A stretch of 23,705 bases of DNA from Ignavibacteriales bacterium (GCA_037441705.1 JBBIRR010000054.1:1-23705), one strand, 5' to 3'. Positions 2,081 through 23,705 are shown, counted from the stretch's first letter. Notes: generated from the sequence alone by a model not told the origin. Numbers and translations are program-made.

Positions 2081-2180
2081 AGAGTTTCAGTCTGCGACTT
2101 GTGTTTCGTCGGGCATCGCCGTACCTTCGGGTACACAGCACACGGCGATTCATGGTTCGCATCTCATTCTCATCAAGCTG

Positions 2181-3062
2181 ATGTCGGCACATTCGATTAG
2201 ACTTCTCCTGCACAATGCGATTGATTACGCGGGCTTGTTTCCGCCCGCCGCGCTGGACATGGCAGAGGCGGTAGCCAACTACGCGCAGTACAGGAACGAT
2301 CCGAACGCCTGGGCGCTGGGGCGCTTCATTGTTCCTGTTGCTCGCCTGCGCGAGTTTGAAGACGAAGCCATGAAACTCGTCGGCGACGGGTCGTGGAAAC
2401 TCAGTGCACTTGGCGGGCCGAACATCTCTCTGGAGCAACGAATCATCGCGGAATTCAACGTCAAGCATGGCGGACGGTTCATGATTGACACACTTGAGGT
2501 GAAGGCAGCGACAGCCAGTGAGATTCACTCGTTGCTCTCGCTCGCTGTGGCCCCGTTGCATGTATTCGTCGAGATTCCCATCGTCGAGGACCCGCTCCCG
2601 CTTCTTGCGATCCTGCGCGGAACAAAGTATCGCGCCAAGGTACGCACCGGAGGCGTTACGCCGGACGCGTTTCCTGAGAGCGATCATCTTGCTCGGTTTC
2701 TTCTTGCGTGTGTTCAGGTGGGCGTTTCCTGCAAGGCAACGGCGGGGCTGCATCATCCTCTTCGGGCCATCTACCGTCTCACGTACAAGCCCGATAGTGT
2801 AAAGGGAAAAATGTACGGCTACCTCAACCTCCTGCTTGCCGCTGCATGTGCGTGGCAGGGATTGGCGCGCGACGAGATCAGACACGTGTTGGAAGAAGAA
2901 GCGATCGAAGCGTTTGAGTTTCTGGACACGGGAGTGACGTGGCGAACGCATCACATTTCCAATGATGTGCTGCGCGAAACACGCGAGCATTTCCTTCTTT
3001 CCTTCGGCTCGTGCTCGTTTCGCGAGCCTGTCGATGAGTTACACCAGCTTCACCTGTTATAG
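2181..3062 (+). CDS. Conserved hypothetical protein (DYAGLFPPA / KVRTGG / KATAGLHHP motifs), co-oriented with fahA
   Basis: 293-aa ORF with enzyme-like motifs; ends 14 bp before the fahA ORF. Confidence 0.8.
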   Translation: MSAHSIRLLLHNAIDYAGLFPPAALDMAEAVANYAQYRNDPNAWALGRFIVPVARLREFEDEAMKLVGDGSWKLSALGGPNISLEQRIIAEFNVKHGGRFMIDTLEVKAATASEIHSLLSLAVAPLHVFVEIPIVEDPLPLLAILRGTKYRAKVRTGGVTPDAFPESDHLARFLLACVQVGVSCKATAGLHHPLRAIYRLTYKPDSVKGKMYGYLNLLLAAACAWQGLARDEIRHVLEEEAIEAFEFLDTGVTWRTHHISNDVLRETREHFLLSFGSCSFREPVDELHQLHLL

Positions 3063-3076
3063 AACCCGGCATTCGT

Positions 3077-5886: not shown

Positions 5887-6143
5887 AGTTGCTTCTTCTA
5901 TGCCAGCACGCACCTCTGCCCATTCGTGCCGGACAAGTTCGATGATGAGAAAGCAGAATATCAGGTTGGGAACTTTGGTAGGGAGATTTGTAGATTTTGC
6001 ACGCCGGTGGGCGAAGAGCGCATGAGGCACGTTGGTTGGAATCGCACTATTTCGTTATATTTGCTGGCGCTGAAGTACACTCCTGCATCGACGCGATTGC
6101 TGCAGCGATTTGATTCGTTGAGAGAACGTCCCAACACAACCTC

Positions 6144-7817: not shown

Positions 7818-7823
7818 CGAATT

Positions 7824-8195
7824 ATGGCAAAGATAACTTTCGGTTGTGGCATTGCGCTGATTCTGGTCGGCGTGATCGGTTATGCAGCGGCCGGCGCTCC
7901 GTTAATTCCCGCGGCTATCGGTTTTCTGTTCTTGAGCTTTGCCATCATGGCAAGGAATGAACAATTACGCAAGCACGCTATGCACGCGGCGGCGGTCGTC
8001 GGGCTCTTGGGATTGTTCGGCTCGATGGGTGGCATCTGGGAGGTTTTCAAGGCGATGGGAGACGGAGCGGTTGACAATCCGGAAGCAGCAATTGCGCGTG
8101 CACTCACGGCGCTCATCTGCCTGACGTTTGTTCTTCTGGCCGTCAAATCGTTTGCCGCAGCCCGGCTACTCAAGAAAGACGAGCAGGCACGTTAA
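7824..8195 (+). CDS. Small integral membrane protein (about 4 TM segments), hypothetical
   Basis: Four hydrophobic stretches, LIPA and RKHAMHAA motifs; starts 6 bp after the ettA stop. Confidence 0.8.
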   Translation: MAKITFGCGIALILVGVIGYAAAGAPLIPAAIGFLFLSFAIMARNEQLRKHAMHAAAVVGLLGLFGSMGGIWEVFKAMGDGAVDNPEAAIARALTALICLTFVLLAVKSFAAARLLKKDEQAR

Positions 8196-8309
8196 TCGCT
8201 CGGCTTACTTCCAAGGGTGGAGATTCATCGCCGAGCGTGTCAACGCGCAACGGCGTTCATCGGCGCAATGCCGCTGTTCTTTCTTATCACACTTGACGGA
8301 GGCCACTCC

Positions 8310-9674
8310 ATGACGACTCGCCGCGAATTCCTTCAGCAAACCGCCGTTCTTTCGGCCGGCGTCCTGTTATCCGACCCACTCCGCTCGCAGCCGAAGCGCA
8401 AGAAGCCTCGTGTTGTCGTCCTCGGCGCGGGACTGTCGGGGCTTGCCGGTGCATACGAGCTGAGCAAACACGGAAGCGAAGTAGTTGTGCTCGAAGCCCG
8501 CAACAGAATCGGCGGCAGAGTCCTCTCCCACGAAATTGATCCCGACAAGAAACTCACCATCGAACTCGGCGCGGAATGGGTCGGCAACTCCCACGAACGG
8601 ATCATTGCGCTGTGCAAAGAGTTCAATCTCGACCTCTTCAACAATCAATTCGATACACATCTCATCTACAAAAATGAATACGCTGCAAGCGGGAAGTGGG
8701 GATACTCGGACGAATGGCAGGCGACGTTTGAAAAACTCCTCGCCGATTTCGGCAAGATGTCCGAAGCGCAGAAGCGGGCGCTCGACAAAACGGATTGGTG
8801 GCGCTACCTCATCAACCACGGCATCAGCGAGCGCGACGTAGATTTGCGTGAGCTGGCGGACAGTACCGACTTCGGCGAAAGCATTCGGCATGTGTCCGGC
8901 TATTCGGCTATAACCGAATATGCCGAGTCCAGTCCCAAGAACGAAATGGATATGAAGATTCGCGGCGGCAACAGCAGACTGCCGCATGCCCTTGCGGATC
9001 GGATCGGGCGTGAGAGAATCAAGCTGCAGCACAAGGTCGTTGCTGTGAGGCAGGAGCAGACCTCTATCACCGTTACATGCGAGAACGGTTCGACGTTCGA
9101 ATGTGATTTTGTTCTGTGCACGATTCCAACATTTGCAATCGGCAAGATTCGCTGGCTGCCCGGGCTGTCGAAAGACAGGGTGATGGCACTGAATGCCCTG
9201 CAGTATTGCCGCATCAACAAACATGCGGTGTTGTTCCGCGAGCGTTTCTGGCAGGAAGAAGCGTTCGATCTCCTCACCGACTCGAACGCCCATTACTTCT
9301 ATCATGCGACCAAGAACCAGGCAGCGCCGCAGGGCGTTCTGATCTCCTATTCCATCGGCGACAAGGCCGATGTGATTGCGCGACAGAACAACGAGTATCG
9401 CAAGCGCATCGTCGTGGACGCGCTGCAGCCGGGCTTCGGCGATGTGTCCGATAAAATCGTCCGACAGGTGAACTACTACTGGGGCAACGATCCGCATTCG
9501 ATGGGGGCGTACGCGATCTACGCAAAAGATCAATGGTTCACGCTGCGACCGATTCTTGCCAAACCGCACGGACGAGTCTTCTTCGCCGGCGAGCATCTCG
9601 CGGACTGGCAGGGATTCATGGAAGGGGCCGTGGTGAGCGGCGAAGAGGCTGCGCGAGCCATACTCGGTGTTTGA
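8310..9674 (+). CDS. Tat-exported flavin-dependent amine / L-amino-acid oxidase family protein
   Basis: GGAGG at 8298-8302 precedes ATG 8310; MTTRREFLQ twin-arginine signal; VVVLGAGLSGL...LEARNRIGGR FAD-binding motif, ELGAEW, FFAGEH...GFMEGAVVSG. Confidence 0.92.
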   Translation: MTTRREFLQQTAVLSAGVLLSDPLRSQPKRKKPRVVVLGAGLSGLAGAYELSKHGSEVVVLEARNRIGGRVLSHEIDPDKKLTIELGAEWVGNSHERIIALCKEFNLDLFNNQFDTHLIYKNEYAASGKWGYSDEWQATFEKLLADFGKMSEAQKRALDKTDWWRYLINHGISERDVDLRELADSTDFGESIRHVSGYSAITEYAESSPKNEMDMKIRGGNSRLPHALADRIGRERIKLQHKVVAVRQEQTSITVTCENGSTFECDFVLCTIPTFAIGKIRWLPGLSKDRVMALNALQYCRINKHAVLFRERFWQEEAFDLLTDSNAHYFYHATKNQAAPQGVLISYSIGDKADVIARQNNEYRKRIVVDALQPGFGDVSDKIVRQVNYYWGNDPHSMGAYAIYAKDQWFTLRPILAKPHGRVFFAGEHLADWQGFMEGAVVSGEEAARAILGV

Positions 9675-9686
9675 ACGCGCGGCGTG

Positions 9687-9715
9687 TTGACTCTCTCCAC
9701 CATCCGCCATATATT
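9687..9715 (+). promoter_or_regulatory. Sigma70-type promoter of the thiamine operon
   Basis: TTGACT (9687-9692), 17 bp spacer, TATATT (9710-9715); ends 10 bp before the riboswitch P1 stem. Confidence 0.7.
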
Positions 9716-9725
9716 ACAAGCGAAA

Positions 9726-9812
9726 CCGTTAGGGGTGTCCCGACAAAAACACAGCGGGACTGAGATCACACCCTAGGAACCTGATCTGGATCATACCAGC
9801 GTAGGGAAACGG
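9726..9812 (+). ncRNA. TPP riboswitch (THI element)
   Basis: P1 ccgtt/aacgg; AGGGGTG...CTGAGA...ACCC..GAACCTGATCTGGATCATACCAGCGTAGGGAA consensus; lies upstream of an operon containing thiamine pyrophosphokinase. Confidence 0.97.
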
Positions 9813-9920
9813 GACGAGTCGTTGCGCACGCGTTCTCTCCTCTGTGAGCCGTTTTCCTCTCTGGGTGATGCCGGATGAGGGAAACGGCTCAAGTGTTTCA
9901 AAGCATAAGGAGGAGAAGTC

Positions 9921-12344
9921 ATGAAGCAAGTGCTTGCAGTGATCCTCTTGATTCTCGTTCCAGTTGCCGACGCGCTGAGTCAGGCAAGCAGCGGCATCAG
10001 AGGGCATGTGACCGATGCGGCCACAGGCAAGCCGATCGCCGGCGCGAACGTGATCGTCGAGCGAACCGGTCTCGGTGCATCAACCAATGCCGAAGGCGAG
10101 TATGTGATTACGGGACTGAAGGACACGACCTACATTGTCCGGGCTTCGCATGTCGGCTATGCGACGCAGCGCTTTCGGGCGGTTCTTGCAAAGGAGGGAC
10201 TCGTGCAAGTGGATTTCGCGCTGCGTCTTTCGGAAATTCTCGGTCAGCCCATTGTTGTGACCGCGACGCGGGGTCGAGAGCGCGAAACACCGGCAACATT
10301 CTCGACGCTCGAGCGAGAACAGATTCGTGAACGCTACACAACGCAGGACATTCCCGTGCTGCTCTCGGAGCTTCCTTCCATCACGTACTATTCCGAAGCG
10401 GGCAACAACATTGGCTACACGTACTTGAACATCCGCGGGTTCGATGCGCGGCGGATTGCGGTGATGGTCAACGGTATTCCGCAAAACGATCCCGAAGATC
10501 ACAACGTGTACTGGCTGGACATGCCCGACCTTGCGGCGAGTGTGGAGGATATTCAAGTGCAGCGCGGGGCAGGCAGCGCCTTCTACGGGCCGCCGGCCAT
10601 CGGAGGGTCGGTCAATCTGGTGACGAGCAACTTCGGCCGCGAACGCGCCTTTCGCTTTGCAGCAGGCGTCGGCAGCTACAACACCCGACGCTATGCGGCC
10701 TCGTTCAGCTCCGGCCTGATCGAAAACCAATATGCCGTGCACGCACGGCTCGCGAAAATTCTCAGCGACGGATATCGCGAGCGTTCATGGGTGGACTTCA
10801 ACAGCTACTTCCTCGGCCTCATCCGCTACGATGAGGACATGACGACGCAGGTGAACTTCTACGGCGGCCCCGTGGCCGACCATCTTGCCTACTACGGCAT
10901 CCCGAAAGCGGACGTGAAGGATCGAACGAAACGTCGTGCGAACCCGATCATGCGCGACGAGGAGATCGAAAACTTTTCTCAACCCCACTACGAACTCTTC
11001 CACGAGTGGCGGTTAAGCCCGACGCTGACGCTCAATAACACACTCTTCCTCGTGTTCGGAGAAGGGTTCTTCGACTACGACGGCTCCTGGGCGCCCTTCT
11101 CGTACTATCGCCTGACGCCGGCAAATGGATTTCCGGTCGTCGGCGATCCCGACACGCTCTACTTGCGCAACGCATTGATCCGCGCATGGGTGGGAAACAA
11201 ACAGTGGGGGTGGCTGCCGCGCCTGACGCTTAAGCACGATAACGGCGAGCTTGTTGCCGGAGCCGAACTGCGCATTCATCGGTCCGAGCACTGGGGCAAA
11301 ATCCGCCGCGCTGACGAGCTGCCCATCGCCGTCCCCGAAAACTATCGCTACTACGAGTATCGTGGCGCGAAGGACATCCTCTCGCTCTACGCTCAGGAGC
11401 TGTACCGCCTGCGTCCCGATCTTACGGCGATGGCAAGTCTGCAGTACGTGTACAACCGATATCGGCTGTATGACGAGAAATATGTTGGAACGGACTTTTC
11501 TGTTCCGTACCATTTCATTAACCCGCGTGTAGGGCTGAATTACAACATTGATGACCACTGGAACGCGTACGTGAGCGCGGCCTATACCTCACGCGAGCCG
11601 CGACTGAAGAACCTGTACGATGCGGCTGAGGCGAGCACGCCGGCCTCGTGGGGTGCGGTGCTGCCGCAGTTTGCCGTTGATGCAAACGGGCGCTTCGATT
11701 ACAGCAAGCCGCTCGTCAAGCCCGAATCGTTGTTCGGCATCGAACTGGGCGGCGGTTTCTCCGACGACAGGCTGCGCGCTGTTGCCAATCTCTTCTGGAT
11801 GGAATTCTCGAACGAGATTGTCAAGAGCGGACAGGTGGATCGCTTCGGCCAGCCCATCACCGGGAATGCGGACAGAACGCGTCACATGGGCATCGAGCTG
11901 AGTGTGCGGGCACGTCCGGTCGAATGGCTTGAGGTGACGGGCAACGCAACGTTCAGCCGCAACCGTTTCGTCCGTCACACGGATTACTCGACCGGTTCGC
12001 CGGTGTCGCTGAACGATAATCCCATTGCCGGCTTCCCCGATGTGTTGGGTAACCTTCGAGTGACGTACCGGGCGAACAATTTTGCCGCGTCGCTCAGCGG
12101 CCGCTACGTCGGCAAGCAGTACACGGACAACTTCCGCAACGAGGCGAACACGGTTGATCCGTATTTCGTGAGTGATTTTCTGATCATGTACACTCTCGAC
12201 AATCTCGTCGATAATATCGGCGTCGAATTGAAGCTCGCGGTGAACAATCTTTTTGATCATCTCTATGCAACCTACGGGGAGGGAAAGGATTTCTTTGTCG
12301 GTGCGGAGCGAAACGCCTTTTTCAATCTTACACTTAATCTCTAA
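9921..12344 (+). CDS. TonB-dependent receptor, probable thiamine outer-membrane transporter
   Basis: AAGGAGG RBS; signal peptide; N-terminal carboxypeptidase-regulatory-like domain; plug motifs IRGFD..RIAVMVNGIPQNDPED..VYW and IQVQRGAGS...GGSVNL; beta-barrel end FFNLTLNL. Substrate inferred from the TPP riboswitch. Confidence 0.93.
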   Translation: MKQVLAVILLILVPVADALSQASSGIRGHVTDAATGKPIAGANVIVERTGLGASTNAEGEYVITGLKDTTYIVRASHVGYATQRFRAVLAKEGLVQVDFALRLSEILGQPIVVTATRGRERETPATFSTLEREQIRERYTTQDIPVLLSELPSITYYSEAGNNIGYTYLNIRGFDARRIAVMVNGIPQNDPEDHNVYWLDMPDLAASVEDIQVQRGAGSAFYGPPAIGGSVNLVTSNFGRERAFRFAAGVGSYNTRRYAASFSSGLIENQYAVHARLAKILSDGYRERSWVDFNSYFLGLIRYDEDMTTQVNFYGGPVADHLAYYGIPKADVKDRTKRRANPIMRDEEIENFSQPHYELFHEWRLSPTLTLNNTLFLVFGEGFFDYDGSWAPFSYYRLTPANGFPVVGDPDTLYLRNALIRAWVGNKQWGWLPRLTLKHDNGELVAGAELRIHRSEHWGKIRRADELPIAVPENYRYYEYRGAKDILSLYAQELYRLRPDLTAMASLQYVYNRYRLYDEKYVGTDFSVPYHFINPRVGLNYNIDDHWNAYVSAAYTSREPRLKNLYDAAEASTPASWGAVLPQFAVDANGRFDYSKPLVKPESLFGIELGGGFSDDRLRAVANLFWMEFSNEIVKSGQVDRFGQPITGNADRTRHMGIELSVRARPVEWLEVTGNATFSRNRFVRHTDYSTGSPVSLNDNPIAGFPDVLGNLRVTYRANNFAASLSGRYVGKQYTDNFRNEANTVDPYFVSDFLIMYTLDNLVDNIGVELKLAVNNLFDHLYATYGEGKDFFVGAERNAFFNLTLNL

Positions 12345-12350
12345 TGCCCG

Positions 12351-13082
12351 GTGCCAACGAAGCGGAATGCTGAGAACCAGGTGAAGAAACGTCGCCGCGC
12401 GTATCAACAGTCGGGGAGAGAACGCATTGATGCGTTGGTCATCTGCAACGGCGAGCCTCCCGCGAGAACACTCGTGCGTAAACTTGCCGCGCGATCGGGG
12501 ATCGTCGTCGCTGCCGATGGGGGAGCGAACATCGCGCGGCAATGCGGCACGCGGCTCGATCTGATCGTTGGGGATCTCGATTCCATCAGCCCGGCGGTCA
12601 GGAAGTTCTACTCGTCTGCTCGAAACGAACGGCCGGAATTGATTCATGTGCAGCGCCAGGACAATACCGATCTTGAGAAGACGCTCGACGTACTACAGGA
12701 AAGAGGCGTCAGGAGGGTGACTCTTGTCGCGGCAACGGGCAAGAGAATCGACCATACGCTCGGCAATCTCTCCGTTCTCTGGAACTACACGCATGCGATG
12801 GACCTCCTGCTCGTTGGCGACGGGTGGACAGCCGTGCCCGTGGGAACGAAGAAGCGTGTGCGTGCAAAGGCAGGCACCATTGTAAGCCTCATTCCGTTCG
12901 GCGCCTGCTCCGGCATCACGCTGAGGGGCTTGCAGTACCCGCTGCTTGACGCATCAATGCGTGTCGGCGAAATTGGTCTCAGCAACGTTGTCGTGAAGTC
13001 GCCTTGTACCGTTCGCGTGAACGACGGCAACTTGCTGATGATCATTCAGGCAAACCTTTTCACCATCTCGATCGAGCAGTGA
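12351..13082 (+). CDS. thiN: Thiamine pyrophosphokinase
   Basis: VAADGGAN, IVGDLDSI, QDNTDLEK, GKRIDHTLGN, GLQYPL, GLSN motifs. Start uncertain (GTG 12351 or 12381). Confidence 0.93.
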   Translation: MPTKRNAENQVKKRRRAYQQSGRERIDALVICNGEPPARTLVRKLAARSGIVVAADGGANIARQCGTRLDLIVGDLDSISPAVRKFYSSARNERPELIHVQRQDNTDLEKTLDVLQERGVRRVTLVAATGKRIDHTLGNLSVLWNYTHAMDLLLVGDGWTAVPVGTKKRVRAKAGTIVSLIPFGACSGITLRGLQYPLLDASMRVGEIGLSNVVVKSPCTVRVNDGNLLMIIQANLFTISIEQ

Positions 13083-14476
13083 TGGTGACGTTCGCGCCCG
13101 CTGATCTTGTTCTCATCGCAGGCTACTTTCTTGCCGTTCTCCTCATCGGATTTCTTTCATCTGCAAAGAGCGAAGCAGCGGACTATCTTCTCGCCGGCCG
13201 TTCGCTGACTCTTCCGCTGTTCGTGATGACGTTAGTCTCCACCTGGTACGGAGGAATCCTCGGGGTGGGGGAGTTTTCCTATCTCTACGGCATCTCCAAC
13301 TGGGTTGTGCAGGGCGTGCCGTACTACATCTTTGCCGTTGTGTTTGCATTCCTGTTGGCGAAGAAGATTCGTGCGTCGAATCTCATGACCATCCCCGACA
13401 AGCTCCACGCTGCGTATGATCTGAAAACTGCCGTGCTCGGTTCGTTCCTCACATTCATTCTCATGACGCCGGCGCCGTACGTGTTGATGCTTGCCGTGCT
13501 GTTGCAGGTGGTGACGGGCTGGAGTTTGCTTGCATGCCTTCTTTTGGGAACGGCGGCCACAACGGTCTATCTCTTCTTCGGCGGCTTCCGCTCGGATGTG
13601 AACACGGACGTGTTTGAGTTCATCCTGATGTTCCTGGGTTTCAGCGTCATTCTTCCGTTCGCGTATGAAAAGTTTGGAGGGTTGGAGTTCATTCGGCAGA
13701 ATGTGCCGCCGCTGCATCTGACGTGGAACGGCGGCAACTCGATCCAGTTCGTATTGGTGTGGTTTTTCATCGCGCTGTGGACGCTCGTTGATCCGGCCTT
13801 TCACCAACGATGCTACGCGGCAAAGTCGGGTGAGGTTGCACAGAAGGGAATTCTTCTCTCGATTATCTTCTGGTTCGTCTTCGATGCGATGACGGCTACG
13901 GCGGGACTGTATGCCCGCGCGGCGCTGCCAAATCTCTCTCAGCCGGTGATGGCCTTCCCCATGCTCGCCGAGGTAACTCTTCCGCCGATTGCGAAAGGGT
14001 TGTTCTACATCGGCATGCTGGCAACCATCATGTCCACGCTGAACACGCTCGCGTTTGTTTCGGCAACCACGCTCGGCAGGGACATTGTCTGGCGTGTGCA
14101 GCAGGCGCGGGACGAGTCGTCTGTAAGTCGGTACACGCAATGGGGCCTTGCCATTACTGCCGTGTTCTCGATCGCGATAGCGCTCGCGATTCCCTCGGTC
14201 ATCAAGCAGTGGTACACGATCGGCACGGTGGTGATTCCCGGTTTGCTGGTGCCGTTAGTGACGAGCTACTTCGAGCGCTGGAAGGTGAGTGCACGCTACG
14301 CCTTTGCAGCGATGCTCTTCGGCTGGCTGACGTCATTAGCGTGGCTCGTCGCGGGCTGGACGCAGCGCATCGGAAGCTCGGAGTTCTATCCGCTCGGCAT
14401 CGAGCCGATGTACCCGGGACTTGCCGTCTCGCTGATGGTTTGGGGATGGGGGTGGAAAGAAGGAAGAAGACTGTAG
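13082..14476 (+). CDS. Sodium:solute symporter family protein, probable thiamine/precursor permease
   Basis: ATG 13082 overlaps the thiN stop (TGATG); YLLAGRSL, STWYGG, GGFRSDVNTD, DPAFHQRCYAAKS, LATIMST motifs; many TM helices. Confidence 0.92.
   Translation: MVTFAPADLVLIAGYFLAVLLIGFLSSAKSEAADYLLAGRSLTLPLFVMTLVSTWYGGILGVGEFSYLYGISNWVVQGVPYYIFAVVFAFLLAKKIRASNLMTIPDKLHAAYDLKTAVLGSFLTFILMTPAPYVLMLAVLLQVVTGWSLLACLLLGTAATTVYLFFGGFRSDVNTDVFEFILMFLGFSVILPFAYEKFGGLEFIRQNVPPLHLTWNGGNSIQFVLVWFFIALWTLVDPAFHQRCYAAKSGEVAQKGILLSIIFWFVFDAMTATAGLYARAALPNLSQPVMAFPMLAEVTLPPIAKGLFYIGMLATIMSTLNTLAFVSATTLGRDIVWRVQQARDESSVSRYTQWGLAITAVFSIAIALAIPSVIKQWYTIGTVVIPGLLVPLVTSYFERWKVSARYAFAAMLFGWLTSLAWLVAGWTQRIGSSEFYPLGIEPMYPGLAVSLMVWGWGWKEGRRL
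14384..14474 (+). repeat. 91-bp direct repeat, copy 1 (3' end of the symporter gene)
   Basis: ttctatccgctcggcatcgag...gaaggaagaagactgt; matches 15160-15250 with 2 mismatches. Confidence 0.97.
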
Positions 14477-16358: not shown

Positions 16359-16600
16359 TGAGGCAATTTGCTCGTATAGTAATTGATTCTATGAGCTTTT
16401 TTCATTCGTGGATATCTCGGAGAGGGTCAGCCTTACAAAGCAATTCCGTTTGATATACTGCTGAAGTTGTTTTCCAAAACCGATTTCGTTTTGCTCTGTC
16501 GATGAAGTCTCACGTTACGTGAAACAGCATTGGAAATCCCCCTGCTATGAGAATTGTGAACTCAGTCCTTTCGGTTGACTGCTACGTCCGTTATAGGTCT

Positions 16601-16660
16601 GGCTAACGGCTTGCGTCAGCCGCCGAGCGAAGCGAGGTCGGCTGCACGCTTTTGTTAGGC
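16601..16660 (-). mobile_element. attC site 2 (60 bp)
   Basis: Minus strand R'' GCCTAAC ... gtgcagccgacctcgcttcgctcggcggctgac ... R' GTTAGCC. Confidence 0.9.
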
Positions 16661-16672
16661 ATTGGGCCATAG

Positions 16673-17389
16673 TTAGTTAGAAGCAAAGCGCTGCTTCAAG
16701 CCCTTAAAAAGCCGCCCGTAAGTTGCAATTGCGTCACTCTGCCTACCTGCTTTGATCTCTTGCACAGCTTGCTCGACCTGAAGGAAGATTTCTTCAAAAA
16801 TGCGGTCAGAGTCGGGCTGTTGTTCGATATTCTGAACAATGACCGGCGCAAAACGATAGTATTCTTGGACAAGCTGGCGTCCGTTTGGAAGCATAGACAC
16901 GTACTCATCGCGAAAACGCCGGAGAATGACAAGTTGCTCGCAGTGGTCGGGCAGTCCTCTAGCGCGAGCGCATGCTGTGGTGATGAAACACCAAGATGAT
17001 GAGGAACCGGAGTCCTTTTCTGGTTCCTTTCCGCGAAAGCCAGTCCCTTCGTGTTCAGTGTAATCTCCAAAGAAGCCTTCCCTTTTGCGCGACTCCCCCG
17101 TCTTCTTACCGGACGAATCCGTGTGTTCGACGTATTTTCCAAAAAAGCCCTCTCTCTCCCGAGACTCGCCAGTTTTCCTGCCTGACGTGTCAGTATGCTC
17201 CGTGTACGCACCAAAGAACCCTTCTCGGTCACGAGATTCACCGATCTTGTTGCCGTGAGCGTCATAATGCTCTACGTACTTTCCGAAGAACCCTTCTCTT
17301 TCACGCGACTCGCCGATCTTGTTGCCTTGATCGTCGTAGTGCTCGGTGTACTTCCCAAAGAATCCCTCGCGTTCGTATGACTTCGGCAT
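16673..17389 (-). CDS. 24-aa tandem-repeat protein with C-terminal CFI-box-CTERM domain (cassette gene)
   Basis: AGGAGG RBS; 4.5 copies of REGFFGxYxEHxDxxGxKxGESRx; Ser linker; CFITTAC...LRRFRDEY...GRQLVQEYYRFAP. Confidence 0.88.
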   Translation of the reverse strand: MPKSYEREGFFGKYTEHYDDQGNKIGESREREGFFGKYVEHYDAHGNKIGESRDREGFFGAYTEHTDTSGRKTGESREREGFFGKYVEHTDSSGKKTGESRKREGFFGDYTEHEGTGFRGKEPEKDSGSSSSWCFITTACARARGLPDHCEQLVILRRFRDEYVSMLPNGRQLVQEYYRFAPVIVQNIEQQPDSDRIFEEIFLQVEQAVQEIKAGRQSDAIATYGRLFKGLKQRFASN

Positions 17390-17410
17390 GACTACCTCCT
17401 TCGGCTATAT

Positions 17411-17468
17411 GCCTAACGACCAAGCTCAGCGGCGGGCGAAGCCCGTCCGCTGGAGTGCCTTGTTGGGC
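17411..17468 (-). mobile_element. attC site 3 (58 bp)
   Basis: Minus strand GCCCAAC-aaggc-ACTCCAGC-ggacgggcttcgcccgcc-GCTGAGC-ttggtc-GTTAGGC: R''/L''/L'/R' layout with one extra base in L''. Confidence 0.93.
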
Positions 17469-17487
17469 CTTTCTCACAAGACGATGA

Positions 17488-18252
17488 TTACAAGAACATC
17501 CCGCCTGAAGCCTCGATTCGCTGCGCATTTACCCATCGTCCCTCCTCTGAGCACAAGAAGGCTACGAGTCCACCGATGTCATCAGGCAACCCGACGCGAC
17601 CCAAGGCGGTTTGTGATGCAATAAACCCCTTCAACTGCGGGTTATGCTCGAATGCACCACGCGTGAAGTCAGTTTCAATCGCACCGGGCGCAATGACATT
17701 TGCCGCTATTCTTCTTGGGCCAAGTTCCTTGGCGAGATATTTTACGAACACTTCGATGGCGCCCTTCATCGAGGCGTAGGCCGCATATCCCGGGATTGCG
17801 AAGCGAGTCAGCCCGGTTGAAACGCAAATGATTCTGCCGCCGTCTGCAACTTGAGGCAGGAGCGTTTGCGTCAAGAAATAGACCCCTTTGAAATGGACGT
17901 TGAGCAAGTCGTCGAATTGCTTCTCGGTCGTTTGCCCAAACGGCGAATGAACATCAATGCCAGCATTGTTGATCAAGAAGTCGAAGTCCTTGCGATACCA
18001 CGTGCCCCTCAATCGGGTTTCGAGTTCAGATGCGAAAGACGGAAATGAGGAAATGACTGAAGCATTCAATTGCAAATGAGCCGATCGTCGACCAAGCGCT
18101 TCAATCTCGGCACAGACGGCTGCCGCTTCATCCTTTCCCTCCCGATAGGTAACTACTACATCCGCTCCATTGCGCGCAAGCTGCAAGGCCATATTCCGTC
18201 CCAGTCCGCGGCTACCGCCAGTTATCAGAGCGATCTTGTTGCCAATGTTCAT
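17488..18252 (-). CDS. Short-chain dehydrogenase/reductase (SDR) family oxidoreductase (cassette gene)
   Basis: GAAGGAG RBS, ATG 18252 (MNIGNK); TGGSRGLG, LINNAG, YASMK, APGAIETD, QRIEASGG motifs. Confidence 0.95.
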   Translation of the reverse strand: MNIGNKIALITGGSRGLGRNMALQLARNGADVVVTYREGKDEAAAVCAEIEALGRRSAHLQLNASVISSFPSFASELETRLRGTWYRKDFDFLINNAGIDVHSPFGQTTEKQFDDLLNVHFKGVYFLTQTLLPQVADGGRIICVSTGLTRFAIPGYAAYASMKGAIEVFVKYLAKELGPRRIAANVIAPGAIETDFTRGAFEHNPQLKGFIASQTALGRVGLPDDIGGLVAFLCSEEGRWVNAQRIEASGGMFL

Positions 18253-18282
18253 ACACACTCCTTCGTTAGAAATGCTGCTGAA

Positions 18283-18420
18283 GCCCAACGACAGAACTGA
18301 GCGACAGCCGCCCCGCCGTGATAACGCCCGTGACGCTCGACAACCAGAGCGCATCGCCGAAGCCCGCGACTCTCGAACGGCAAAGCGGGGCGGCTGTTCG
18401 CTCCAGTGATCTTGTTGGGC
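18283..18420 (-). mobile_element. attC site 4 (138 bp)
   Basis: R'' GCCCAAC ... cactggagcgaacagccgcccc ... ggggcggctgtcgctcagt ... R' GTTGGGC; 10 mismatches to site 5 by manual count. Confidence 0.92.
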
Positions 18421-18427
18421 CATTCGT

Positions 18428-19252
18428 TCATACTGGTGTTCCAGCAATCCATGCCTCGTTCACCGCTCTGATAAGGGCATCACGGTTGCGCGCATCCTCA
18501 ACGATGCTGATCATGAAGGCTCTGGACCCCGCATGGTTGAGGGACGCGCCGATATGCACGCAAACAGACTGGTCCACGACCAAGAATCGGTCGTGAAAGT
18601 CCGAAGATGTCCGCAACTCGATCCGCACCTCCGGATGTTGTGCGACAAACGTCTGGGCTTCTGCTTTGAGCCCGCTTGGATTGTTTCGGCAGAGCAAGCG
18701 GATAGTCATCGGACGGAGGCCAGACGACTCCAGAATACCGAACAGGGCACGATCACAATAGGGGTCAACAACCAGTAAATCCTTCTCTGCCTTGTCGATG
18801 ACCTTACGAACTGCAACAAACGCATCCCATTGCGAATCGCGAGGGAAGAACATCTCCCTGATCTGTGGGTCGAGTGTAACCAGTCGGTCCTCTTGAAAGC
18901 CCCAGCCGATCTTGGCGAGCGCAGCCAGCAGGGCTTCTCGTGATTGCTGTCTGATGGCCATGAACCGTCCCAGGGCAGCACTCGCAGCCGCCAACCGCCC
19001 TGCCGCAGACAACGCATCGTATGCTGCCAGAACTCGGGGACGCAAAGCTCGGATCCTGGTGCTGTGAGAGAAGTCTGCGCTGCTCGAAAGAGCAAGATCG
19101 AACGCGAGGCCATCACTGGTGAATGTCTCAATGAACAAATCGGCGCTGTTTGCCTCTGAGGCGAAGCTGACGAGAACCCGAAACGGGTCGAACTCACTGG
19201 AAATGTGCTTGTCCATCGCCACCATGCCCGGAGCATCACTCCCCGATCTCAT
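18428..19252 (-). CDS. Hypothetical protein with C-terminal phospholipase D-like (nuclease-type) domain, HDR variant
   Basis: LLVVDPY ... FHDRFLVVD...HIGASLNHAG matches the H-x-K/R-x4-D-x6-G-x-S-x-N pattern; helical N-terminal half unrecognised; ATGA overlap with the upstream gene. Confidence 0.78.
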   Translation of the reverse strand: MRSGSDAPGMVAMDKHISSEFDPFRVLVSFASEANSADLFIETFTSDGLAFDLALSSSADFSHSTRIRALRPRVLAAYDALSAAGRLAAASAALGRFMAIRQQSREALLAALAKIGWGFQEDRLVTLDPQIREMFFPRDSQWDAFVAVRKVIDKAEKDLLVVDPYCDRALFGILESSGLRPMTIRLLCRNNPSGLKAEAQTFVAQHPEVRIELRTSSDFHDRFLVVDQSVCVHIGASLNHAGSRAFMISIVEDARNRDALIRAVNEAWIAGTPV

Positions 19253-20118
19253 TCTGCTCCCTTCAAGAAGAACGCCTTGCCGGGAATCCGTGACCAGTCC
19301 CTCGAAAACCGTGGCTTTAACGGTTTCAGTTCCTTCAAGCTTTTCAGCGGACGCAACTGCTTTAAGCTCTTGAGTGGTGCTGTGTCGACCGGAGTGCGAA
19401 AATTCTCGGCCAATGCGGCTACAACACGCCCATCGTGGTCATAAACAACGCCTGATTGAAACCATCCAAGGTGCTTCCCGTTGAATCCGTAAATGTCCTC
19501 GTCATCCAAATACGCTGATGGCTTGCCTGACCAAAGGTAAATGGTCATGTCTTGGTCTGGTGCAATGTAGGCGACTGCGCTGCCAGTGGAATCGTAAAGG
19601 TCGATGTCGCTATCGCGTGCTGCAACCTTAGATGCGCCACGAGTCCCGGTGACCAGCTTTGCCTCGGCTGTACCGCGCTCCCCCACCAGCTTAAACGGAT
19701 ACTGCGGGTTGCCGCTCTCAACAACCACGACATTGTCTGTTGGCAACCAGAGCATCGTATTGATCTTGTCGAGTGGAGAAATCTGCCAAAGCGAGCCGTC
19801 CTCCAACTGAATGAAGGCTCCACCGTCGGCTTTACTCTTGACCCAGTGCTTCTGTCCAGTGGCAGCGTAAGCCGCGGCCTTCGGGACAGTCGTGGACTCA
19901 GCGGAAGCCTTCGTAGCGACGGTGATGGCAAAGCCCGTGAGCCATTGCTCAAGCGCCGCCTTCTCCTTTGGTGAGAGCTTGGATACCCCTGTCCTCTGCT
20001 GCTCTGCCTTGGTCATGATCGTGTCGAGCGAAAGACCTTGCGGCGGTGTATCGGCTGCGAGAGCAGCCGATCCTGAGACAGCCACTAAAACGATCAGTTG
20101 TCGCAGGAGTGTGTTCAT
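19249..20118 (-). CDS. Secreted multidomain hypothetical protein with C-terminal 4-fold beta-flower-like domain
   Basis: ATG 20118, signal peptide ending SAALA-A; helical segment GVSKLSPKEKAALEQWL; IQLEDGSLWQI beta domain; LYDSTGSAVAYI / IYLWSGKPSAYL / IYGFNGKHLGWF / VYDHDGRVVA repeats; PLK-rich tail. Confidence 0.78.
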   Translation of the reverse strand: MNTLLRQLIVLVAVSGSAALAADTPPQGLSLDTIMTKAEQQRTGVSKLSPKEKAALEQWLTGFAITVATKASAESTTVPKAAAYAATGQKHWVKSKADGGAFIQLEDGSLWQISPLDKINTMLWLPTDNVVVVESGNPQYPFKLVGERGTAEAKLVTGTRGASKVAARDSDIDLYDSTGSAVAYIAPDQDMTIYLWSGKPSAYLDDEDIYGFNGKHLGWFQSGVVYDHDGRVVAALAENFRTPVDTAPLKSLKQLRPLKSLKELKPLKPRFSRDWSRIPGKAFFLKGAE

Positions 20119-20139
20119 AGCGAGACTCGCTTTGCTGTC

Positions 20140-20277
20140 GCCCAACGACAGAACTGAGCGACAGCCGCCCCGCCGTGATAACGCCCGTGACTCCCGACAA
20201 CCAGAGCGCGCCGCCGAAGCCCGCGACTCTCAAACTGCGAAGCGGGGCGGCTGTTCGCTCCAGTGATTTTGTTAGCC
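20140..20277 (-). mobile_element. attC site 5 (138 bp)
   Basis: R'' GGCTAAC contains the mrr TAA stop; R' GTTGGGC; near copy of site 4. Confidence 0.92.
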
Positions 20278-21189
20278 CAGTTCTTCACTGAAGTAATCGT
20301 TGTCAATCCGCTTCACCTCGTATGTGGCGGTCGTGGAGACCCCGATGCCAAAATCAATCATCAGATTCCACAACTGCTCGCCGTCGATCAGGACGATCTT
20401 GCTGTCGATGCGTGATGCATACTCAACCGCCTCTTTCGAGAAGTCGGAGGTGGTGATGAAAATACCCTTGCGGGCGCGGACGCCCTGCAATGCACCGGCG
20501 AACTTCTGAATCTCCGGCCTGCTCACCGTCTGCTCCCACTTCTTCGCTTGGATATAAATCGTGTCGAGTCCAAGCCGATCCTCCTTGATGATGCCATCAA
20601 TGCCCTCATCGCCGCTCTTGCCTATGGCCTGCCCCGCATCCTTGCGCGTGCCGCCATAGCCCATCCGGACAAGTAACTCGACCACCAGTCTCTCGAAAAA
20701 TGCTGGCGATGCCGACTTCAGCTTGGCGAGTATCTCACGGCCCAAACTCTCGCGCAGAGCCTCGAATGACTGCTCCATCATCTCTTCGGGGGTCTGATCG
20801 GCGTCAGAAGTAACAAGCTCTCCGTTTCCCTCTAGCTTGTCTCGCTTCCGGTCTCGCGCTTCCAAATAACCGGGCTGCCTTCGGAGAAGGCGCAAATCAA
20901 TGCGCTCGTGCGTCGTCTTCAGAAGCTCCAGCCCTCGTGCCGTGATCTTGAACACACCTCTGCCAGTTGGCTCGATGAGACCGGCCATGCGCAAGTGTGT
21001 CTTCGCCCAGGCAACACGGTTCGTAAACACTTCCTGGCGTCCACTCGGCAAGAGCCGCTTCCGCTCCTCATCGGTCAGCTCGAAATGGTCGCCGAGTCGA
21101 TCAAGGGTTTCGCGAACCGAATGCTCCTTGCTGTCGCTGATGACGTCCATCAGTGGCCGCATGACCGACTGGAAATCAGGTATGGGCAT
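20272..21189 (-). CDS. mrr: Mrr restriction system protein (type IV, modification-dependent; cassette gene)
   Basis: Mrr_N (IPDFQSVMRPL...NRVAWAKTHL) plus catalytic domain FERLVVELL..MGY, GDEGIDG, IYIQAKKW, GIFITTSDF, IVLIDG. Confidence 0.95.
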   Translation of the reverse strand: MPIPDFQSVMRPLMDVISDSKEHSVRETLDRLGDHFELTDEERKRLLPSGRQEVFTNRVAWAKTHLRMAGLIEPTGRGVFKITARGLELLKTTHERIDLRLLRRQPGYLEARDRKRDKLEGNGELVTSDADQTPEEMMEQSFEALRESLGREILAKLKSASPAFFERLVVELLVRMGYGGTRKDAGQAIGKSGDEGIDGIIKEDRLGLDTIYIQAKKWEQTVSRPEIQKFAGALQGVRARKGIFITTSDFSKEAVEYASRIDSKIVLIDGEQLWNLMIDFGIGVSTTATYEVKRIDNDYFSEELG

Positions 21190-21715
21190 GTGCGTTCAGG
21201 GCTAACGCTAAGGTCAGCGACGGGAGCCAGCCGCCGATGACGTTCGATTTGTCTCTGAGCGAATCGGCTGGCTCCCGTTCGCTGGACCGTCTGGTTCGGA
21301 GTTCACTTTCGTAAACCTCAAAATCCTCCTCCCCTATCCTCCTCCCCTCGGGCAACGACTCCAACTCGAGCTCTAACCGCAGATCACGCCTCAGCTCGTC
21401 GAGAAGCTCATCGAACGACAAGCCTCCTCCGGCTGCAGCTTTGCCAACCACATCGCTGGCCAGAGCAACCTGCTTGCTCGTGCCGAAAAGCTGGATGTCG
21501 CTGATTGCGCACTCAATCTTCTTGAACGCCTCCGGCATCTCACTGGGCGGTCGGTTGCTGGAATACTCTATCTGCCGATACGCCTCGATCAGAAACTGAA
21601 GCCGAATCTCGCGTTTCTTGGCGTCCCTGTCCTGGCGCTTCAGATCGCGCGCTGACAAGTAATACACGGCAATGGCCGCGATGGCGCCAATGAATGCTGC
21701 AACAACCTCGGTCAT
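21176..21715 (-). CDS. Hypothetical protein with a single N-terminal TM helix; C-terminus frameshifted through attC 6
   Basis: ATG 21715 preceded by GGAG inside the attC 7 core; VVAAFIGAIAAIAVYYL TM segment; FLIEAYR and DIQLFGT motifs; the last ~40 codons are translated attC and flank. Confidence 0.8.
   Translation of the reverse strand: MTEVVAAFIGAIAAIAVYYLSARDLKRQDRDAKKREIRLQFLIEAYRQIEYSSNRPPSEMPEAFKKIECAISDIQLFGTSKQVALASDVVGKAAAGGGLSFDELLDELRRDLRLELELESLPEGRRIGEEDFEVYESELRTRRSSEREPADSLRDKSNVIGGWLPSLTLALALNAHAHT
21200..21300 (-). mobile_element. attC site 6 (101 bp)
   Basis: R'' TCCGAAC ... ggtccagcgaacgggagccagccg ... cggctggctcccgtcgctgacc ... R' GTTAGCC. Confidence 0.88.
21323..21348. 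repeat. 13-bp perfect tandem duplication (atcctcctcccct x2)
   Basis: 21323-21335 equals 21336-21348; length is not a multiple of 3. Confidence 0.95.
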
Positions 21716-21725
21716 GCGCAATTAC

Positions 21726-21818
21726 TCCGAACGACTAAGCTCACCGACGCCGGACCTATGACTTTCGATTGTCAACCGAGACGCGATCCCGGCGTTCGGT
21801 GCAGCCGGTTTGTTCGGC
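21726..21818 (-). mobile_element. attC site 7 (93 bp)
   Basis: R'' GCCGAAC ... ctgcaccgaacgccggg ... tccggcgtcggtgagc ... R' GTTCGGA. Confidence 0.88.
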
Positions 21819-21822
21819 ATGG

Positions 21823-22224
21823 TCATTGTGTCTTCAATCGCGGTGTCAAACTCACCATCATGCTGCCAACGGAAATGGCGCATTCCTGACCGGGTCGTGC
21901 GGTGAGCTGCGACTGGCCCAAACGCTGAACCTTCCCGCCGCCGGTCTTCGTCTCGACAACCAACTCCATCTGGAGATTACCGTCGGGTAAAACGGTCGGT
22001 GTGATAACGCAGTCCTTCCCTTCGTCAAGGCTGACACGCTTCTGTGTGGATGCTGTCAACTCGACCTGACCCAAATCTACTGTCGGCATGTCCGCAGGGA
22101 GGGATGACACCTGCCGCACGTTGGTCGCCTGTCCGGTCGGCTCGCTCGGACTCTTCGAGCAACTGACCCCGATCATTGTGACCAGAACCGCGGCGCTTGT
22201 GGTGATGATGTGTGGTGTTTTCAT
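21823..22224 (-). CDS. Hypothetical lipoprotein (cassette gene)
   Basis: MK + hydrophobic stretch + IGVS-C lipobox-like site, Ser/Pro linker, beta-rich domain with two Cys; fills the space between attC 8 and attC 7. Confidence 0.75.
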   Translation of the reverse strand: MKTPHIITTSAAVLVTMIGVSCSKSPSEPTGQATNVRQVSSLPADMPTVDLGQVELTASTQKRVSLDEGKDCVITPTVLPDGNLQMELVVETKTGGGKVQRLGQSQLTARPGQECAISVGSMMVSLTPRLKTQ

Positions 22225-22242
22225 AGTATGTGGTGTGTAGAT

Positions 22243-22304
22243 GCCGAACGCTCCGGTTCAGCGGCGGCGCGCAGCGGGCCGTCCGCTGCAACCGGTTGTT
22301 GGGC
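22243..22304 (-). mobile_element. attC site 8 (62 bp)
   Basis: R'' GCCCAAC-aaccggttgcagcggacggcccgctgcgcgccgccgctgaaccggagc-GTTCGGC R'. Confidence 0.92.
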
Positions 22305-22325
22305 GGCCCCCCTTGCGGATGACCA

Positions 22326-23705
22326 TCACGTCGACGCCCGCGATAGTGGGACCCATGCGTGGGTTTCCGGATCGAACCGCTCAAGCCTGGAAGCTGACGC
22401 GATTTCCAGGAACCGACGCGCAATCGCGATTGCCGGCGCCTTCTTCGGTTCCTCGAAGCCGGGCGGGAGTCGTGGCGGGACCAAACAGCTCGGGCACCCG
22501 TGTCTGCACGGGCACCTTTCTGCGATGCCGATCGCCGTCTCGATCACCGTCGGCCACACCTCAAGGGCCTTTTCCGCGACCCCGATGCCGCCCGGCACGG
22601 TCTCGTAAAGGTGGACCGTTGCTGGGGGCCTGAGACTCGTCAGCGTGCCCAGGTCGTGCCTGTCGCACGGCACGACGAATGGCGCGCCGATTCGCAGGAG
22701 TTGCTCGAGACCGAACAGATCTCGTACGTCCGAATGATTTCCAAGGATCGACGCATCCGCCAGCTCGAGCCAGAAGCCTCTCACGTTCGACGGGCGCGCG
22801 AGCTGGGTTCGCTGTTCGTCGACAACCTCCCCTGAGCGCGTGTCAATCAGCCGGAAGCCCCCGAAGTTCTCGAAGACAGTTAGTCTGCCGTAGCAGGCGG
22901 CAAGGTTCTCCGCATACCGGATGCCGGAAAGGATCTCGGCGCCCTGTGTGACCGTCCAGAAGATGCCCTCAGTGCGAAGATGCGGCTCGGCGTCCTCCAA
23001 TTGCACCTCGCCTGCGGCGTGCGCGGTCACACGGTACGGCTTCCCGAAGTGGTTGTAGATCGCGCCGACGTACGCTTCCCGGAAAAGATGAACGTCGGAG
23101 ATGTCCCCGACCTCCTTGCCCTTGTACATCAGGCGATATGTCGTGCCAGAGCCGCCGCGGATGCTCAGCCTCTGGTAGCTCGGTCCGTGACTCTTGACAG
23201 GCTCTTTCCCGTCCATCGCTTTGCGGGCGAAGTCGAAGAACGGGCTTCCCAAGTGCTCGGCGAGTTCGGGCGTGAACTCGGCGCCGCACTCGTGCACCAG
23301 GTACGGTACGTGCCTGGCCATCAGTTCCTCGTTGTCGACGCCGATCAGGATCTCGTCGAGTGGCTTGTCCAGGAACGCGTCGATATTGCTCGCAAAGAAC
23401 CGGTCGAAGGGGTTGTTGAACGCGTAGAAGAGGACATAGGCCTTCTTGTCCCAACTGCGCCCGACGCGGCCGATCCGCTGCCAGGCCGAGAGGACGCTGT
23501 CGGGAAACCCGGCGAGGATGCACACGTCGAGCCGACCGATGTCCACCCCGATCTCCAAGGCGTTGGTGCTGAAGACGGCCTTGTAGCGGCCAGCGCGGAG
23601 TCCGTCCTCGATCTCCCGGCGCAGCTCCGCCTCGTACCCGCTTCGATAGGGCGCGATCGTATCAGGGTCGATCCCGTGCTCGCCTGCGTCGCGTTTGGCT
23701 CGGAT
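22326..23705 (-). CDS. 5'-truncated DEAD/DEAH-box helicase with C-terminal DUF1998 (MrfA/Hrq1/DrmB-like) zinc-binding domain
   Basis: Frame is open to the window edge: PYRSGYEAELRREIE...STNALEIGVDIG, QRIGRVGR, EAYVGAIY, CDRHD, LYETVPGGIG, CPCRHGCPSC. Confidence 0.93.
   Translation of the reverse strand: MRAKRDAGEHGIDPDTIAPYRSGYEAELRREIEDGLRAGRYKAVFSTNALEIGVDIGRLDVCILAGFPDSVLSAWQRIGRVGRSWDKKAYVLFYAFNNPFDRFFASNIDAFLDKPLDEILIGVDNEELMARHVPYLVHECGAEFTPELAEHLGSPFFDFARKAMDGKEPVKSHGPSYQRLSIRGGSGTTYRLMYKGKEVGDISDVHLFREAYVGAIYNHFGKPYRVTAHAAGEVQLEDAEPHLRTEGIFWTVTQGAEILSGIRYAENLAACYGRLTVFENFGGFRLIDTRSGEVVDEQRTQLARPSNVRGFWLELADASILGNHSDVRDLFGLEQLLRIGAPFVVPCDRHDLGTLTSLRPPATVHLYETVPGGIGVAEKALEVWPTVIETAIGIAERCPCRHGCPSCLVPPRLPPGFEEPKKAPAIAIARRFLEIASASRLERFDPETHAWVPLSRAST

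Follow-up and report, generated by a model that had tools for sequence, protein, structure and literature searches.

The DNA analyzed here is the complete contig JBBIRR010000054.1 (C54) of the genome GCA_037441705.1 of an Ignavibacteriales bacterium, which comprises 3.83 Mb in 92 contigs with a G+C content of 56%, and this whole stretch of 23,705 bp is referred to as the window. The region from position 16599 to position 23705 very probably represents the attI-distal end of a chromosomal integron cassette array that is located on the minus strand and consists of six complete cassettes and the end of a seventh one. It contains seven attC recombination sites on the minus strand between positions 16599 and 22307 (Table 1). 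From position 16599 to the contig end every gene is encoded on the minus strand and structured repeats are present between the genes; all seven sets of open reading frames (ORFs) are co-oriented and have leaders of approximately 16 to 36 nt. Non-cassette DNA follows directly after attC6, and a search from attC6 towards position 14400 with the covariance model R1, which was built from the seven attC sites of the window, revealed no further site. An initial annotation of the window, made from the sequence alone, had proposed an array assembled by an integron integrase (IntI). The recombination cores quoted there are each present at the place indicated, the proposed cassette boundaries are identical to those deduced from the G of the GTT in each R' core, and the proposal itself is supported by the folding of the attC sites, by an intI gene on contig C73 and by the absence of the array from related genomes.

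The chain of matched cores was quantified by comparing the six variable bases adjoining GTT or AAC in the R' core upstream of each cassette with those in the R'' core of the same cassette. The resulting matches of 6, 6, 5, 5, 5 and 6 for cassettes 1 to 6 add up to 33 of 36 positions; the start of cassette 1 (GTTCGGCAT), for instance, is complementary to its own R'' core (ATGCCGAAC) at all six variable positions. Within one and the same site, as it lies in the array, the R'' and R' cores of these six sites match at just 21 of the 36 positions. When the six upstream cores were combined with the six inverse cores in each of the 720 possible ways, only the observed combination reached 33, and the runner-up yielded 31. 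The initial annotation had called this chain perfect, which applies over 9 nt to three cassettes and to the other three only over the quoted 7 to 8 nt. Since the match is internal to each cassette, it is independent of the assembled cassette order, and the start of each cassette along with its own R'' core is contained in one Logan contig (records 2-6) assembled independently from run X1, which holds 97% of the sampled words and is probably the source sample.

These data, along with a contig from another study whose match to cassette 4 stops 3 to 4 nt from both predicted junctions, provide indirect support for a crossover at G|TT of the R' core, the 5' end of each cassette complementing its own R'' core. 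In the proposed mechanism, each cassette would be inserted by IntI, which would bind the folded bottom strand of attC (here the plus strand of the window), one strand would be exchanged at 5'-AA|C-3' (G|TT in terms of the coding strand) with attI or another attC site, and replication would then resolve the junction. A promoter would be located between the intI stop codon and attI. With the cut placed behind the G, at least the terminal six bases of each R' core would belong to the next cassette, and for this reason the first bases of a cassette would complement its own inverse core.

The attC sites vary in length from 61 to 140 nt, with the AAC and GTT triplets being invariant in all seven of them. 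Folding of the bottom strands as single-stranded DNA resulted in z-scores ranging from -2.36 to -6.31 (with a folding energy of -26.8 kcal/mol for attC0), and the number of shuffled sequences that folded at least as well, with 200 shuffles per site, was 0, 3, 0, 0, 0, 1 and 4 for attC0 to attC6. R and L stems were predicted in every bottom-strand fold, the R box not being the chosen pairing in the minimum free energy folds of attC2 and attC3. An RNAalifold consensus of the seven sites contains 17 base pairs, nine of which display compensatory changes on both sides, and is composed of the R box, an unpaired spacer of 5 to 6 nt per arm and the L stem. Two unpaired bases are present on the R''-L'' arm only (columns 20 and 27) and are separated by exactly six pairs in all seven sites; the distal one is invariably an A on the top strand and thus a T on the bottom strand. 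All seven bottom-strand sites hence form the R/L-box hairpins with extrahelical bases on which the initial annotation had made its proposal depend. The attC geometry set out by Nivina et al. (2016; PMC5027507) includes extrahelical bases near L'', of which the first is "usually a G" and the distal T is conserved, a required 6-bp stem between them, a spacer of 5 to 6 bases and a length of 57 to 141 bp. The seven sites of the window share this published geometry apart from the first extrahelical base and some of the cores. The site attC3 contains a long variable terminal structure and is 94% identical to attC4 over 134 nt.

The strict regular expression RYYYAAC-N-GTTRRRY found two of the seven sites plus a chance match at 1834-1930 and was discarded as too strict, and regular expressions for the arm motifs turned out to be unspecific. 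An Rfam scan of positions 14000-23705 at E <= 1 returned no attC family and only a sub-threshold match to a CRISPR repeat (24 bits versus a gathering threshold of 39). A genome-wide scan for AAC...GTT hairpins yielded 21,225 candidate pairs, whose ranking by energy was swamped by G+C-rich hairpins. A strict architecture filter retained nine of them, three being sites of the window and six lying isolated on six other contigs; since this filter recovers just three of the seven known sites, further sites may be present elsewhere in the genome. Scoring 150 of 737 first-look candidates of the genome with R1 revealed no site outside the window, and apart from one truncated site at a contig end no copies of the window sites were found elsewhere in the 3.8-Mb genome.

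The model R1 was moreover applied to a test set of 79 loci around public-genome relatives of the integron integrase of this genome, comprising 324,524 nt downstream and 593,318 nt upstream of intI. It yielded 98 hits with E <= 0.1, of which 97 are located on the strand of intI and 94 both on this strand and downstream of the gene; the remaining four are L079:4519, L083:1820, L083:3999 and L063:649. Hits downstream of true IntI genes occurred in 36 loci, and among the 46 loci that extend 1,500 nt or more downstream of intI, 33 contained a hit. An alignment of 93 sites, seven from the window and 86 from elsewhere, was used to assess covariation; it was fitted to the model and therefore favors the pairing result, according to which 95.1% of the cells pair, compared with 72.8% in shuffles. 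Double changes were detected in 11 of the 12 L-box pairs, and sliding the partner by one to three columns reduced pairing to 17-41%. Pairing frequently fails in the outer pairs of the R box (20 of 90 and 27 of 92 cells), which would be expected for outer R' bases derived from the following cassette. Of the 93 sites, 90 retain the distal T, and the first extrahelical base of the bottom strand is a C in 58 and a G in 27, a count that is biased by the origin of the model from the window's own sites. R1 can be used to recognize attC sites of the clade in which intI is transcribed towards attI, across many phyla.

The distribution of the array was examined in 40 related genomes, 11 of which belong to the same genus, by DNA searches with the 7,107-nt array and the 8,401-nt flank. 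Matches to the array were found in nine genomes, none of them exceeding 413 nt. Two of these matches are situated in the mrr gene, and the others have a length of 46 to 80 nt and coincide with attC0, attC1 or attC5. The flank was matched in all 40 genomes, the longest stretches reaching 5.9 kb at 69% identity. A conserved gene order devoid of the sites, which the initial annotation had regarded as an argument against an array, was therefore not observed: the array is missing from all 40 genomes and the flank is kept in all of them. An intI gene over the cut-off is present in 12 of the 40 relatives, including 6 of the 11 same-genus genomes. As judged from these sequence comparisons, the array appears to be accessory, and the cassette content would vary between relatives.

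Table 1. Features of the window, listed from the contig end towards the flank; the crossover G is the G of the GTT in the R' core
Feature	Position	Strand	Length	R'' core	R' core	Crossover G	z-score	R1 score (bits)	Chain match	Content
Gene of seventh cassette	22326..23705	-	459 codons							3' part of DEAD/DEAH-type helicase with MrfA Zn-binding domain; cut by contig end; cassette ends in attC0
attC0	22241..22307	-		GCCCAAC	GTTCGGC	22249	-3.93	55.9
Cassette 1	21732..22248	-	517 bp						6/6	ORF 21823-22224, 133 amino acids
attC1	21724..21820	-		ATGCCGAAC	GTTCGGAGT	21732	-2.78	86.7
Cassette 2	21206..21731	-	526 bp						6/6	ORF 21176-21721
attC2	21199..21302	-		ACTCCGAAC	GTTAGCCC	21206	-4.61	63.5
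Cassette 3	20146..21205	-	1060 bp						5/6	Mrr-type type IV restriction endonuclease gene 20272-21189
attC3	20139..20278	-	140 nt	GGGCTAAC	GTTGGGC	20146	-3.62	81.5
Cassette 4	18289..20145	-	1857 bp						5/6	Beta-flower gene 19249-20118 overlapping PLD-like gene 18428-19252
attC4	18282..18421	-	140 nt	GCCCAAC	GTTGGGC	18289	-6.31	84.4
Cassette 5	17417..18288	-	872 bp						5/6	Short-chain dehydrogenase/reductase gene 17488-18252
attC5	17409..17469	-		GCCCAAC	GTTAGGCAT	17417	-2.83	56.1
Cassette 6	16607..17416	-	810 bp						6/6	Repeat protein gene 16673-17389
attC6	16599..16662	-		ATGCCTAAC	GTTAGCC	16607	-2.36	54.4 (filters off)		Last site of array
Flank genes	1..14476									TonB-dependent receptor, ABC-F ATPase, amine oxidase, thiamin pyrophosphokinase, sodium:solute symporter

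The integrase gene is located at C73:47-1132 on the minus strand and is devoid of internal stops. Its product scored 486.6 bits against TIGR02249 (cut-off 265) over model positions 1-314, and it is the only gene of the genome exceeding the cut-off, the other tyrosine recombinases reaching at most 130 bits; none of 14 control genomes contained a gene over the cut-off. The protein aligned with the Vibrio cholerae integrase VchIntIA (2a3v; E 4.4e-89) in one continuous alignment of residues 48-359 that includes the ...ALERKYPNA... region, and Xer structures matched it in two pieces that skip residues ~224-303, the IntI-specific insertion. An intI gene with this insertion, for which the initial annotation had recommended a search, is hence encoded in the genome outside the window. 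Its closest relatives are titled Kapabacteria (86%), Ignavibacteriota, Chlorobiaceae, Planctomycetota, Nitrospira and Deltaproteobacteria. Downstream of the intI stop codon, the related loci share a conserved stretch made up of a palindromic box, a promoter-like site (TTGACA-17-TATTAT) and a second box ending in ...ATA|GTTAGGC, beyond which the loci diverge and the first cassettes begin; in locus L016, the promoter-like site agrees with the consensus in 11 of 12 positions. A tblastx comparison of C73 and C54 with the four best intI loci revealed nothing in common beyond intI and the short stretch following it.

The genome contains three copies of the intI promoter along with the 5' end, namely the intact gene on C73, a fragment at C73:6906-7282 that is 71% identical to C73:781-1168 and precedes a Cache-domain gene, and a remnant at C68:1-420. 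On the minus strand of C73, the sequence breaks off 46 nt past the stop codon of the intact intI gene, inside the first conserved box. The minus strand of C68 carries the intI promoter and the first codons, lacks nearly the whole gene by deletion and continues with both boxes, a promoter-like site (TTGACA-17-TGTTAT) and ...ATTA|GTTAGGC, the contig ending 9 nt past GTTAGGC. This stretch aligns with the post-intI DNA of relatives up to GTTAGGC and diverges beyond, and it is regarded as a putative attI with a candidate promoter Pc on the basis of the conservation stopping at GTTAGGC and of the promoter match in L016. At the end of C73 (8300-8323), a truncated L'-R' arm of an attC site with the core GTTAGCC was detected, followed by two small membrane-protein ORFs without attC and then by the intI 5' fragment. 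This truncated site suggests that a second array is located upstream of the integrase contig.

Additionally, a related metagenome-assembled genome (MAG) carries in locus L017 (10001-16702) two tandem intI genes 3.8 kb apart, each followed by a box-promoter-attI stretch, and R1 hits are present between and after both genes. The intI and attI pieces of the present genome would fit a tandem layout of this kind. Locus L111 (G007:C53, 5366-12230) belongs to a same-genus genome that is devoid of intI; here, a C68-like segment begins 4.3 kb past the symporter gene and ends where the integron platform starts in the present genome, with DNA resembling contig C11 following it. The platform thus lies at a synteny break, and the C68 segment may be inverted in the present genome.

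Evidence on the cassettes as units was moreover obtained from public metagenome runs, where array parts without cover in X2, X3 and X7 do not count as absence. A 2,098-nt contig of X3 (record 17), a run from a different study, covers positions 18286-20149 with 79 differences, the predicted extent of cassette 4 being 18289-20145, and it continues with 207 and 24 unlike letters beyond the two ends of the match. The 3 to 4 nt by which the match extends beyond the cassette at each end represent conserved core bases. Pieces of cassette 4 were also present in X7, which belongs to a third study. The recurrence of cassette 4 with different neighbors in metagenomes of other studies provides field evidence for discrete mobile units. 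Sites of the attC0 type (22247-22304) and of the attC2 type (21200-21299) recurred, flanked on either side by unlike DNA, in numerous X2, X3 and X7 contigs, the attC2 type being abundant in X7. One contig of X1 reaches 778 nt past the end of the window.

Several observations weigh against an interpretation as an integron array. The first extrahelical base of the bottom strand is a C in five and a G in two of the seven sites, whereas classical sites usually have a G. The strict consensus RYYYAAC/GTTRRRY fits only two of the seven sites, the departures being GTTCGGC and GTTCGGA at position 4 and two GTTAGCC cores at position 6. Predicted stability does not consistently favor the bottom over the top strand: the bottom strand has an advantage of more than 0.5 kcal/mol in three of the seven sites, and in one site an advantage of 3 kcal/mol lies with the top strand. 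The intI gene and the putative attI are located on other contigs (C73 and C68), and the ends of C54, C68 and C73 are not joined by any shared 15-mer, so that a linkage of the array to either platform is what we infer rather than read from the assembly. The contigs of X1 break at every attC site, and the cassette order therefore rests on the MAG assembler. Finally, the run contigs contain four joints that skip 85, 90, 1896 and 1947 nt, none of which coincides with a cassette boundary, so that excision of these cassettes was not observed; the joints look like attC sites of the same family with other loops.

The position of the integrase also bears on the state of the array. Since intI lies on another contig, the window taken by itself has the formal status of an integrase-less attC cluster, and the array might be a fossil or orphan either on the intI-deleted platform C68 or on no platform at all, its cassettes moving, if at all, by the action of the C73 integrase in trans. 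We consider this a serious possibility that nevertheless stays below an even chance. It would agree with the organization of C68, which retains the intI promoter, the box, Pc and attI without nearly the whole intI gene and stops shortly past attI as if an array followed, as well as with the second intI 5' fragment on C73 and with the lack of intI in the window. However, C73 ends just after an intact intI gene in the same conserved box, so that the array could equally follow there, and 20 of the 79 related intI loci likewise end less than 400 nt after intI, which indicates that a break at this point is common. Nothing tells the two platforms apart as carriers of the array. As for the main reading, we presume that the intact IntI made the array, that the array is joined to one of the two platforms and that recombination in it is still occurring.

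The fragmentation of the X1 assembly likewise raises the question whether parts of the array were mis-joined by the assembler at repeated attC sites, so that some cassettes would originate from another strain or organism of the sample. Besides the breaks at each attC site, alternative flanks in X1 at attC0 and attC2 (loose ends at 21204, 22247 and 22303-22304), depths of the X1 pieces that differ from 7 to 37 and the near-identity of attC3 and attC4 would be in line with such an error. It is nevertheless improbable, since a continuous series of overlapping X1 contigs reproduces the order of the window across 16400-22276, record 1 of X1 ties attC6 to the flank, and each cassette is represented from its start to its own R'' core in one X1 contig.

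An integron-like array that is run by an Xer-like recombinase without the IntI-specific domain is very unlikely in view of the classical geometry of the sites, their similarity to sites downstream of true IntI genes in 36 loci and the identification of a full IntI with the insertion as the best recombinase of the genome. That the palindromes are merely repetitive extragenic palindromic (REP-type) elements or transcription terminators between ordinary genes, with core matches arising by chance, would be compatible with G+C-rich hairpins after stop codons and with the many hairpins of similar stability in the crude genome-wide energy scan, but is dismissed as next to impossible, because the chain is reproduced by one of 720 permutations only, two unpaired bases occur asymmetrically on one arm in all seven sites, the rest of the 3.8-Mb genome yielded no copies of the sites apart from the truncated one at a contig end, relatives do not share the gene order and one cassette recurs elsewhere with different neighbors.

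Among the cassettes of the array, at least two carry genes of a defense type. The helicase of the seventh cassette matched the Pfam families Helicase_C (2.7e-11) and MZB (1.2e-16) and, partially, TIGR03817, with partial PADLOC matches to the helicases DruE, DrmA and BrxH. The protein of cassette 1 has a predicted lipoprotein-like signal sequence, and it yielded no match in Pfam, NCBIfam or PADLOC. The protein of cassette 2 contains one N-terminal hydrophobic helix; its ORF is without a stop codon before attC2 and runs through this site. An exact tandem duplication of 13 nt (21323-21348) is present in this ORF and exists as a single copy in the X1 contig, and regardless of the copy number the ORF does not terminate until within or past attC2. 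In cassette 3, the Mrr protein matched Mrr_N (7.3e-31) and Mrr_cat (2.3e-36) of Pfam and, over its full length, the PADLOC model mREase_IV with 279.7 bits, and the TAA stop codon of mrr lies inside the R'' core of attC3. Cassette 4 encodes a secreted beta-flower protein (Pfam Bflower, 3.8e-31) along with a PLD-like partner showing a weak match to PLDc_2, and it includes the PADLOC candidate defense protein PDC-S05 (7.3e-24). The short-chain dehydrogenase/reductase of cassette 5 matched adh_short_C2 of Pfam (1e-47), and the repeat protein of cassette 6 carries a CFI-box-CTERM domain (NCBIfam NF041770, 7.7e-15). Papers of 2025 by Darracq, Kieffer and Getz, cited in PMC12614218, reportedly describe defense-type genes in integrons. 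The presence of Mrr and PDC-S05 in the array is in line with the recent notion that integrons store anti-phage systems. Defense genes in integron cassettes are also the subject of recent reports, as indicated in the text of PMC12614218.

The flank of the array, comprising bases 1-14476 of the window, contains ordinary chromosomal genes. The ABC-F protein encoded there is 82% identical to its ortholog in a MAG titled Ignavibacteriota and 80% identical to that in a MAG titled Bacteroidota; its best matches in Chlorobium, in an Ignavibacteria MAG and in the Kapabacteria MAG with the closest intI show at most 44% identity. One protein of the flank contains a weak match to a sorting domain of the type IX secretion system (T9SS). 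These identities and the sorting-domain match agree with the T9SS-bearing Bacteroidota/Ignavibacteria-like host that had been suggested initially. A RelB/ParE toxin-antitoxin gene pair is located at 14484-14950 between direct repeats at 14381-14474 and 15157-15250, which have a length of 94 nt, are 97% identical and duplicate the 3' end of the sodium:solute symporter gene. The pair lies 1.6 kb beyond the last attC site and, unlike a cassette, is without an attC of its own. The stretch 15500-16600 directly after the last attC site has a G+C content of 39%, compared with 56% in the genome, and holds a broken gene for a Porphyromonas-type peptidylarginine/agmatine deiminase; model R1 found no site of a degenerate cassette there.

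Taken further, these observations might be combined into a wider hypothesis, which we regard as doubtful in its entirety. The genome would carry two tandem platforms whose cassettes belong to an actively exchanged, community-wide pool. One of the platforms, devoid of an integrase, would keep the promoter and attI, and the intact IntI of the other would serve both arrays in trans, with both platforms being situated at a hot spot of chromosomal rearrangement. The pool would be common to subsurface and sediment communities of different studies and would be partly of an anti-phage nature (Mrr, the PLD-like/beta-flower pair and the DUF1998-type helicase), and the attC family of this clade would use a C instead of a G as the first flipped-out base. 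If true, this last feature would imply a different pocket contact in the respective IntI proteins.

The array was finally compared with known integron systems. It resembles the inverted-integrase chromosomal integrons of the Treponema denticola type, as 94 of the 98 R1 hits are located downstream of intI on its strand. According to PMC3607928, the Treponema layout is characterized by an intI gene transcribed towards attI, and this intI groups with its counterparts in Chlorobium phaeobacteroides, Kuenenia, Blastopirellula and Synechococcus; the designation "inverted integrase group" is used in PMC3575428. A published description of the box-Pc-attI layout of this clade was not met, no search having been aimed at such a description. 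In contrast to the inverted-integrase group, intI, attI and the array are distributed here over three contigs, and two truncated intI copies are present. The superintegron of V. cholerae with VchIntIA and VCR sites is similar with respect to the integrase alignment and the parts of the attC sites, which V. cholerae and the sedentary chromosomal integrons have in common with this array, including R and L boxes, extrahelical bases, an unpaired spacer and a variable terminal structure. Cassettes with defense-type genes, reported for integrons, are found here as well in the form of Mrr and PDC-S05. Unlike in V. cholerae, however, the attC sites are heterogeneous, with lengths of 61 to 140 nt and one near-identical pair, and do not form one uniform repeat family; moreover, intI has the opposite orientation, and the nearby RelB/ParE genes lie outside the attC-bounded array.

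A cluster of attC sites lacking a nearby integron integrase is termed CALIN according to the definition of IntegronFinder. The window alone, with seven attC sites and no intI, resembles such an element, whereas its contig ends inside the array and the genome contains intI and an attI platform at contig ends, so that the CALIN status may be an artifact of the assembly. CALIN elements are mentioned in PMC9024848, which for IntegronFinder 2.0 also notes earlier finds of complete integrons in Chlorobi and Ignavibacteriae and adds one in Salinibacter. The array shares the host group with the integrons of Ignavibacteriae, Chlorobi and Salinibacter ruber known from IntegronFinder surveys but belongs to another, uncultured lineage. 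Integrons of the Ignavibacteria-like group are already known, and the array is a well-formed further example, which leaves the knowledge of how integrons work unchanged and adds a cleanly resolved chromosomal integron from a non-proteobacterial host of an uncultured, Ignavibacteria-like lineage. It goes a little beyond the textbook description by the integrase-less platform beside an intact intI gene, the reappearance of one cassette in different studies and the use of a C where the first base is flipped out.

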